Shown one piece after another: positions 46,404 through 46,534 of a DNA stretch of 64,000 bases; within the stretch, counting starts at the first letter, position 1, and each line of letters starts with the position of its first letter. Under the pieces are notes generated by a model. The model worked only from the letters and a program-made list of their open reading frames with translations. It made no database searches and was not told the origin of the DNA. The translations under genes and the position numbers were made by a program. Source of the DNA: Nitrospirota bacterium (lineage in GTDB: Bacteria > Nitrospirota > Leptospirillia > Leptospirillales > Leptospirillaceae); contig DAIBTC010000001.1 of the NCBI GenBank assembly GCA_027415345.1, forward strand, positions 12,555 through 76,554, given 5' to 3'.

Positions 46404-46420
46404 CAGGAATAATATTCCTG
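46404..46420 (+). promoter_or_regulatory. 17-bp perfect palindrome CAGGAA-N5-TTCCTG, candidate enhancer site for the glycosyltransferase-island promoter
   Basis: CAGGAATAATATTCCTG ends exactly 75 nt before the TGG of the 46496 -24 element. Confidence 0.4.
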
Positions 46421-46495
46421 TCCAGAAGATCGATCTTTGATGATTTCCCTTTCATGACAATGTCTTGTTGTAACCCTCCAATCTCTTTTCCTCCC

Positions 46496-46511
46496 TGGCA
46501 TAAAAAATGCG
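46496..46511 (+). promoter_or_regulatory. sigma-54-type (-24/-12) promoter upstream of the glycosyltransferase island
   Basis: TGGCATAAAAAATGCG has GG and GC at canonical spacing (-12 is ATGC rather than TTGC). It lies 24 nt upstream of ATG 46535, with SD AGGAGGA in between. Confidence 0.55.
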
Positions 46512-46534
46512 TATAAGCCTGCCAGGAGGATGCC

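Follow-up and report, generated by a model that had tools for sequence, protein, structure and literature searches.

A glycosyltransferase island follows the flagellar genes of a Leptospirillia genome

The 64-kb window analyzed here, the whole stretch of DNA to which all coordinates refer unless a contig is named, was taken from a metagenome-assembled genome (MAG) of the phylum Nitrospirota, class Leptospirillia, and is nearly entirely occupied by a single plus-strand flagellar and chemotaxis cluster. Our subject is the spacer that precedes a glycosyltransferase island, beginning at 46535, together with the promoter and the upstream boxes that this spacer contains. The source MAG (G000; other G numbers denote relatives) comprises 2.0 Mb in 348 contigs with a GC content of 59.5%, and is 82% complete with 3.9% contamination.

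According to Pfam and NCBIfam matches, the cluster opens with a TPR protein, a PAS histidine kinase and a REC-AAA+-HTH_8 activator, followed by flgB, flgC, fliE, fliF and fliG. Next come fliI, flgE, fliL, flhA, flhF, flhG and fliA, the che genes and the mot genes, and then flgF, flgG, flagellin 1, flgK, flgL and a csrA/fliW gene. The series is completed by flagellin 2, fliD, fliS and orf161, after which the island begins. Among the approximately 46 kb of flagellar genes upstream of the island, we saw no obviously truncated open reading frames (ORFs), frame breaks having been checked against Pfam domains only.

For comparison, we used 27 genomes of the same family. An ortholog of the first island gene was located in 24 of them, and 20 of these loci, representing five genera, were read; both complete genomes, G017 and G018, carry the orthologous locus. 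Position weight matrices (PWMs) for sigma-54 sites and for the boxes described below were built from the family's own promoters, with genome-wide thresholds of 12 bits for a sigma-54 site and 21 bits for a strong box.

The spacer before the island carries a putative sigma-54 promoter and paired upstream boxes

Between the stop codon at 46284 and the ATG at 46535, the spacer measures 250 nt, exactly the length given in an earlier reading of this DNA, hereafter the original prediction. It contains the following elements:

46496-46511, plus strand: sigma-54 (-24/-12) promoter TGGCATAAAAAATGCG, with GG at 46497-98 and GC at 46509-10 in the canonical GG-N10-GC spacing
46524-46537, plus strand: Shine-Dalgarno sequence AGGAGG (46524-29) and start codon ATG (46535), read from the sequence and both kept in the alignment of relatives
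46404-46420, no strand: box B, palindrome CAGGAATAATATTCCTG, a perfect 8-N1-8 dyad with the core GGAA-N5-TTCC at 46406-46418
46375-46387, no strand: box A, GGAAAGAAAATCC, with one mismatch to GGAA-N5-TTCC and a PWM score of 13.1
46359-46372, no strand: palindrome-like element GACAATTTTCTGAC abutting box A, with one mismatch to GTCA-N6-TGAC (here GACA-N6-TGAC)

Compared to the 16-mer sigma-54 consensus (TGGCAC-N5-TTGCW), the promoter motif shows two mismatches and has both doublets in position. The original prediction had recognized this motif and its GG/GC doublets at -24/-12 spacing, and both the position and the spacing hold; its distance of 24 nt to the first island gene needs correction, since the motif ends 23 nt before the ATG. 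Transcription is predicted to start near 46521-46523, which would leave a very short leader of approximately 13 nt. The leaders predicted for the flgB and flgF promoters are equally short.

Box B is the more conspicuous of the two upstream sites. Its palindrome has no second exact match in the window, its PWM score of 21.1 places it within the top five boxes of the genome, and it is separated from the island promoter by exactly 75 nt. Counted from the TGG of the promoter, box B starts at -90, with its center approximately 110 nt upstream of the predicted start, and box A starts at -121, the distance from box A to box B being 31 nt. Both positions fall within the range of approximately 80 to 150 nt that is expected for sigma-54 activator sites.

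Two other readings of sequences in the spacer were tried and rejected. A role of the box B palindrome as terminator or as RNA element found no support, since the spacer did not outperform shuffled sequences in folding (z = 0.62) and no T-run follows. A minus-strand motif, TGGCATCCTCCTGGCA (46535-46520), overlaps the Shine-Dalgarno sequence and the ATG and is without a downstream gene.

The flgB and flgF promoters share the box and its distance

Corresponding elements lie in front of the two operons that begin with flgB and flgF:

3423-3530, plus strand: flgB control region, with promoter TGGTATGTTTGTTGCA at 3515-3530 and ATG at 3557
3425-3437 and 3447-3459: flgB boxes GGAAAATTCTTCC at -90 and GGAACCGATTCCC at -68 from the promoter TGG
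33222-33329, plus strand: flgF control region, with promoter TGGCATGAGCCTTGCT at 33314-33329 and ATG at 33357
33224-33236 and 33247-33259: flgF boxes GGAATTTTTTTCC at -90 and TGAAGAAATTTCC at -67 from the promoter TGG

The flgF promoter had been said to carry the same palindrome as the island at the same distance of 75 nt. The distance is indeed 75 nt, whereas the palindromes are related rather than the same, with GAGGAATTTTTTTCCTG (33222-33238) matching that of the island at 14 of 17 positions. A third such element, CGGGAAAATTCTTCCTG (3423-3439), precedes the flgB promoter, again with a gap of 75 nt. What the island, flgF and flgB have in common is the core GGAA-N5-TTCC with an A/T-rich center. 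Each of the three promoters thus has a common box centered approximately 110 nt upstream of the start, plus a weaker partner that is two or three helical turns away. The three 75-nt spacers are AT-rich, with an A+T content of 59 to 72% (59% at the island) versus 41% for the window; IHF-like sites were sought in them and none was convincing.

This arrangement is confined to the three promoters. The window contains three copies of the composite of GGAA-N5-TTCC, 70 to 85 nt and TGGYA-N6-7-TGC, where 0.01 would be expected, and none of 100 shuffles reached three. Among the 154 GGAA-N5-TTCC sites of the 2.0-Mb genome, only those of the island, flgB and flgF have a sigma-54-type motif at that offset. 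Conversely, of the 39 sigma-54-like sites scoring at least 12 bits genome-wide, only those of flgF, the island and flgB are accompanied by a box of at least 21 bits. The genome's other sigma-54 promoters, considered as possible further members of the regulon (sugar synthesis genes, for instance), were without a strong box and were rejected. Boxes of this strength were observed five times in the genome and never in shuffles, and four of the five best lie in the window.

The top-scoring box of the genome, CCGGAATTTTTTTCCTT (32699-32721), was rejected as a regulatory site: it is kept in no relative and is followed by no sigma-54 motif, and we treat it as an orphan. This box, at 32701, comes directly after the stop codon of a FlhB-C-like gene of small size and precedes flgF by 656 nt. 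A 660-nt gap at 32698-33356 is without an annotated gene. A second flgF-like 5′ end was seen on a short contig (C19:4130-4495), with promoter TGGCATATATATTGCT and box GGCAAAATTTGCC at -112; its sigma-54 site is C19:4243. The fragment resembles another genus, its promoter matching that of flgF in genus g3 (G017) without a difference, and is probably contamination of the bin by another Leptospirillum-like genome.

Promoter and boxes are conserved while the DNA between them diverges

A TGGCA-N6-TGC motif was present upstream of the orthologous first island gene in all 20 loci read. Within the genus of the window, it lies 38 to 41 nt from the ATG (each of the 14 other species), compared with 60 to 63 nt (five loci) or 92 nt (one locus) in other genera. 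GGAA-N5-TTCC-like boxes were likewise found at 20/20 island loci and are paired in nearly all of them, with a box-to-box spacing of 31 to 33 nt in the genus of the window and 22 to 23 nt in other genera. Nine named Leptospirillia/Nitrospirae MAG records show the same promoter and boxes, these being largely the same genomes.

A footprint obtained by MAFFT alignment of 14 species of the genus reinforced this pattern. Only box A with its abutting dyad, box B, the -24/-12 element and the Shine-Dalgarno sequence with the ATG are conserved, and the intervening DNA differs between the 14 species in both sequence and length. Between the proximal box and the promoter, the gap ranges from 67 to 151 nt among species, in steps compatible with the helical repeat. 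Across the three promoter families, the box offsets are best described by a period of 10.5 to 10.75 bp (R = 0.47), with a nominal Rayleigh p of ∼6e-5 that is overstated, since the species are related. The same boxes accompany the flgF promoters of 25 relatives as well as the flgB promoters, and overall the spacing between boxes is either 22 to 23 or 31 to 33 nt. Such a conserved combination of boxes and promoter has the look of an enhancer for a sigma-54 activator.

The island encodes an unusual set of glycosyltransferases

Five genes with glycosyltransferase domains directly follow fliD-fliS-orf161, and the island also contains conserved small ORFs:

46535-47502, plus strand: first island gene, CgeB-like glycosyltransferase (Glyco_trans_1_2, PF13524, 97 bits on the intact G015 ortholog)
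47480-49785, plus strand: fusion of a GT1 glycosyltransferase and a SAM (S-adenosylmethionine) methyltransferase (Pfam Glycos_transf_1 and Methyltransf_23), with its body at 47480-49348
49787-51364, plus strand: GT9 (heptosyltransferase-like) glycosyltransferase a (PF01075, 62 bits), its order kept in three genera
51351-53153, plus strand: Maf/CgeB protein, which combines a Maf-N-like domain with DUF3880 and a CgeB-like glycosyltransferase domain (PF20157, PF12996 and PF13524, the last with 125 bits)
53150-55686, plus strand: GT9 glycosyltransferase b (53150-54955, PF01075, 77 bits) and the conserved orf322, placed by tblastn synteny

The order of the island after fliD-fliS is kept in three genera, as judged by tblastn. 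For orf322, the true start probably lies after 54955. GT9 b finds the GT9 structures 3tov and 1psw in the PDB, and the same kind of sequence search with the Maf/CgeB protein gave no hit. The latter protein matches only the N-terminal domain of Maf (PF20157, 30.4 bits versus a cut-off of 23.5, residues 74-125), its catalytic part being CgeB-like.

Two of the genes are interrupted. The first island gene is broken by a 1-base deletion near 46861 (46855-46870) relative to its 92%-identical ortholog in G015; the ORF ends at 220 aa here, while the G015 ortholog is intact at 322 aa and the frame is open in all 20 relatives read (328 to 394 aa). In the fusion gene, the tail (49435-49785) is out of frame with the body, the two forming one frame in G010. 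The breaks near 46861 and at 49348-49435 could be either assembly errors or real, recent decay.

The gene for the Maf/CgeB protein is present in 25 of the 27 relatives, which are exactly those with flgB, flgF and fliL. It is absent only from G009 (89% complete) and G020 (64% complete), and both of these also lack flgB, flgF and fliL. Counting the source MAG, co-occurrence is thus perfect in 28 genomes; because these genomes are related and partly incomplete, we take it as supportive, short of statistical proof, of a tie between the island and the flagellum.

Farther downstream within the island, 55890-60097 contains three ORFs of 804, 432 and 132 aa without Pfam domains, the 432-aa product giving a weak hit to a filamentous-haemagglutinin N-terminal domain. 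The orthologous islands of G010, G017 and G018 lack these ORFs, which look like a later, lineage-specific insertion.

A proposed place of the island in the flagellar hierarchy

Taking together the motifs, their geometry and statistics, their conservation and the gene content, we infer that the island depends on sigma-54 and that it very probably belongs to the sigma-54 regulon of the flagellum. We also consider it likely that the 250-nt spacer is the enhancer-dependent sigma-54 control region of a conserved glycosyltransferase operon, with the full mechanism, including activator and substrate, as set out here. Sigma-54 itself is available, rpoN being represented by one PF04552 match (210.9 bits) on contig C295. 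In the mechanism we propose, sigma-54 RNA polymerase would bind TGGCAT-N6-TGC at 46496-46511 and stay closed until activated. A hexameric AAA+ enhancer-binding protein would dock on box B (approximately -110) and box A (approximately -141), three helical turns apart, loop across the AT-rich 75-nt spacer and open the closed complex, so that transcription would begin near 46522 with a leader of approximately 13 nt that carries the Shine-Dalgarno sequence.

Since the box is common to three operons, the same activator response is expected of all of them, that is, a shared activator would serve flgB, flgF and the island from one box at an identical -110 position in each. The island would then be switched on with the genes for rod, ring, hook and flagellin 1, the last of which lies in the sigma-54 flgF operon. 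This would happen earlier than, and independently of, the expression of flagellin 2, which has the following promoter:

42851-42878, plus strand: sigma-28-type promoter of flagellin 2, TAAAGTTT-N11-GCCGAAGA, near-consensus, with ATG at 42973

Flagellin 2 is followed by a strong terminator, and fliA is located at 23158-23895. From its promoter, flagellin 2 belongs to the late class. The most likely task of the island enzymes would be to modify, in the cytoplasm and prior to export, either flagellin or some other exported protein of the flagellum. Co-induction of the island with the rod genes through the flagellar sigma-54 wiring, the central claim of the original prediction, was supported by every sequence-level test that we ran and retains the standing of a prediction. 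Its further argument, that this timing speaks for a flagellar substrate, finds support in both co-regulation and position, which fall short of proof.

As for the activator, a two-component system is encoded near the start of the window:

774-3421, plus strand: flagellum-associated two-component system (Pfam), with PAS histidine kinase at 774-2024 and REC-AAA+-HTH_8 activator at 2021-3421

This pair upstream of flgB would be a system of the FlgSR/FlrBC/FleSR type and the most likely activator. We think that the protein acting on the GGAA boxes is probably the response regulator encoded at 2021-3421. This choice is favored by the location of its ortholog directly upstream of flgB in 26/26 family genomes, and by the known role of such regulators at rod and hook promoters: in the studied polar flagellates with FlhF and FlhG, it is the flagellum-associated two-component regulator that acts there (PMC7064773). 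The NCBIfam models for FlbD and FlgR score 394 and 323 bits on this protein (cut-offs of 750 each), and generic AtoC/NtrC models score higher.

Points against the assignment and alternative explanations

Several observations weigh against the picture drawn above. At the promoter, the -12 element is ATGCG where the consensus is TTGCW, and the PWM score is mid-range, its 19.3 bits placing the site 16th of the 39 that reach 12 bits or more genome-wide. We found no convincing intrinsic terminator at 46284-46535, between orf161/fliS and the island, and therefore read-through may add to the sigma-54 input and the sigma-54 promoter need not be the sole one. Judging from 14 strong PF00158 matches, of which two fall on the contig of the window, the genome has no fewer than 14 sigma-54 activators, and the flgB operon carries fliF and fliG in addition to its rod genes. 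Within the island, two genes are frameshifted in this assembly, the GT9 domains resemble those of lipopolysaccharide (LPS) heptosyltransferases, and Pfam and NCBIfam searches of 46535-62299 detected no domains for the synthesis of nonulosonic acids or sugar nucleotides. Sugar-nucleotide genes are common in flagellin glycosylation islands, though not universal.

The main alternative leaves promoter and enhancers as described and has the GGAA boxes bound by a different activator, a possibility we regard as doubtful. A second activator of 358 aa, with AAA+ and HTH_8 domains and no receiver domain, is encoded just upstream of the window (C111:10078-11154), in the same cluster; this protein or another of the genome's activators, at least 14 in all, would be the binder, and the assignment of the activator is not unique. 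Moreover, in Vibrio and Pseudomonas, fliF and fliG depend on the master regulator FlrA/FleQ and not on the two-component regulator (PMC7064773). Their presence in an operon under a GGAA box fits a master-type activator, and it means that the hierarchy of the model species, where these genes precede the two-component class, is not directly transferable. Nothing links the 358-aa protein to the boxes, whereas the response-regulator gene adjoins the flgB control region in every one of the 26 genomes and has the rod/hook role of its counterparts on its side. We note that the cluster starts with the gene of the 358-aa activator, followed by that of the TPR protein (approximately 700 aa) and then by the kinase/regulator pair (C111:10078-12600 plus window positions 1-790); neither the 358-aa activator gene nor the TPR gene showed a sigma-54 motif upstream.

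Alternatively, the regulation may be real and the enzymes may act on another glycan coupled to motility, such as the LPS core or a surface polysaccharide. This appears unlikely. The best NCBIfam and PDB matches of the two GT9 enzymes are indeed LPS heptosyltransferases, albeit below family cut-offs, and together with the missing sugar-nucleotide genes and the short flagellins of approximately 275 to 285 aa, they point away from flagellin. Set against this are a location immediately behind fliD-fliS that is kept in three genera, the Maf-N-type domain above its Pfam cut-off, the perfect co-occurrence with flagellar genes and the enhancer shared with the rod operons. In addition, the known flagellin glycosyltransferases include GT-B enzymes that carry protein-binding repeats, as exemplified by FlmG (PMC7591256).

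The dyad at 46359 raises the question of a second input. It is kept in 13 of the 14 genus sequences of the MAFFT footprint, has the form GTCA-N6-TGAC in seven of the 14, and shares the geometry of the Pseudomonas FleQ box. The island loci of other genera lack it, as do the control regions of flgB and flgF. Within the genus of the window, the promoter of the island might conceivably integrate two activators, the regulator of the GGAA boxes and the 358-aa protein at the 46359 dyad, an arrangement that we consider rather improbable. If true, the glycosylation operon would have a checkpoint promoter requiring both a master-type and an assembly-sensing two-component regulator, and such a dual-input arrangement has not been described for flagellin-modification genes. 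A wider FleQ-box regulon, which might have pointed to the targets of the 358-aa protein and so told the two activators apart, was rejected. The GTCA-N6-TGAC pattern is enriched in the window (46 versus 19 expected), and its exact hits at 2261, 2324, 14188 and 30196 are all coding, specifying the receiver-domain motifs VIFMT and GAVNFLTKP, the C-terminal QMID of FlgE and RAVNVLT of MotB. As these are conserved peptides, their conservation is uninformative on regulation, and only the noncoding copy at 46359 remains.

Least probable is transcription of the island mainly by read-through from fliD-fliS-orf161 or from a housekeeping promoter in the spacer, with only a minor role of the sigma-54-like motif, for which the missing terminator, the off-consensus -12 element and weak sigma-70-like hexamers at 46357-46385 could be cited. 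These hexamers, however, overlap the conserved boxes and score just 9/12. The sigma-54 motif, for its part, has held its place with respect to the ATG in 20/20 relatives while the spacer diverges in sequence and length, and it is always accompanied by paired boxes in helical phase.

Relation to known systems

The closest parallel to the proposed wiring comes from the Epsilonproteobacteria. In Campylobacter jejuni and Helicobacter pylori, the RpoN-dependent middle genes include flagellin-glycosylation enzymes (PMC3930126), and the Maf gene jhp0106 of H. pylori is transcribed from the RpoN-dependent flaB promoter (PMC5368276). That is, modification genes, Maf-type ones included, belong there to the sigma-54 middle class together with rod/hook genes and the minor flagellin (PMC3930126, PMC5368276). 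The major, late flagellin is sigma-28 dependent in these bacteria, and the division between flagellin 1 in a sigma-54 operon and flagellin 2 behind a sigma-28 promoter is similar. In contrast, we are dealing here with the class Leptospirillia of the Nitrospirota, with a dedicated promoter rather than a flagellin promoter, with clear upstream enhancer dyads, and with GT9, CgeB-like and GT1-methyltransferase enzymes instead of a pseudaminic-acid pathway in the island. The FlgR protein of H. pylori, by comparison, is not known to have a DNA-binding domain.

The regulators resemble FlrBC of Vibrio cholerae and FleSR of Pseudomonas aeruginosa, in that the flagellar cluster includes genes for a cytoplasmic PAS kinase and a REC-AAA+-HTH regulator as well as for FlhF, FlhG and FliA, and in that the flgB and flgF promoters are of the sigma-54 type (PMC7064773). 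They differ in the flgB operon, which here also includes fliE, fliF, fliG and fliI, and in the box, GGAA-N5-TTCC, which we could match to no published FlrC or FleR site.

With respect to geometry, the island promoter is reminiscent of the NtrC-type promoter glnAp2 of enteric bacteria, having two dyad sites approximately 110 and 140 nt upstream that are separated by integral helical turns. The activator sites of glnAp2 lie at -108 and -140, and without such tandem sites the activator oligomer, which reaches the closed complex through a DNA loop, does not assemble. Unlike at glnAp2, the half-sites have another sequence, and the flgB and flgF promoters have their second site on the proximal side (approximately -87) rather than the distal one.

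Finally, FlbD of Caulobacter crescentus is a sigma-54 activator dedicated to flagellar genes that binds dyad ftr elements near class III/IV promoters (PMC3930126), and in this respect, a flagellar activator acting through dyads near its promoters, it is comparable to the system proposed here. However, it is CtrA rather than FlbD with sigma-54 that times the flagellin-glycosylation genes flmG, flmA and neuB of Caulobacter, so that FlmG and its sugar pathway come with the early flagellar genes, prior to flagellin export (PMC7591256).

That enzymes modifying flagellin are made alongside the early or middle flagellar class and ahead of late flagellin is therefore an established principle, known from Epsilonproteobacteria (RpoN) and Caulobacter (CtrA), and no new mechanism is revealed here. 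New are the phylum, a distant one to which the principle would be extended, an enhancer-dependent promoter dedicated to the island, a defined box in common with the rod operons and an unusual set of enzymes, which is tied to flagellar assembly by three independent lines, namely position, cis-elements and co-occurrence. For the Leptospirillia, a mostly uncultured class of acid-mine, iron-oxidizing bacteria, the paired GGAA-N5-TTCC motif, its three target promoters and the candidate activator amount to a testable regulatory map of the flagellum.

Other promoter-like motifs in the cluster

A perfect sigma-54 consensus, TGGCACAGGAATTGCT (1796-1811), was rejected as a promoter, as it encodes the DNGTGI ATP-lid (G1) motif of the histidine kinase. 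At 14327-14381, behind flgE, a GC-rich terminator hairpin is immediately succeeded by the sigma-54 promoter TGGTACAGCTTTTGCT (14366) of the fliL-flhA-flhF-fliA operon. This promoter is kept in the family yet lacks a GGAA box, and may therefore be served by another activator or from a distant site. Another sigma-28-type motif, TAAAGTCT-N12-GCCGA (38565-38589), is located just after flagellin 1, before the small genes that precede flgK.

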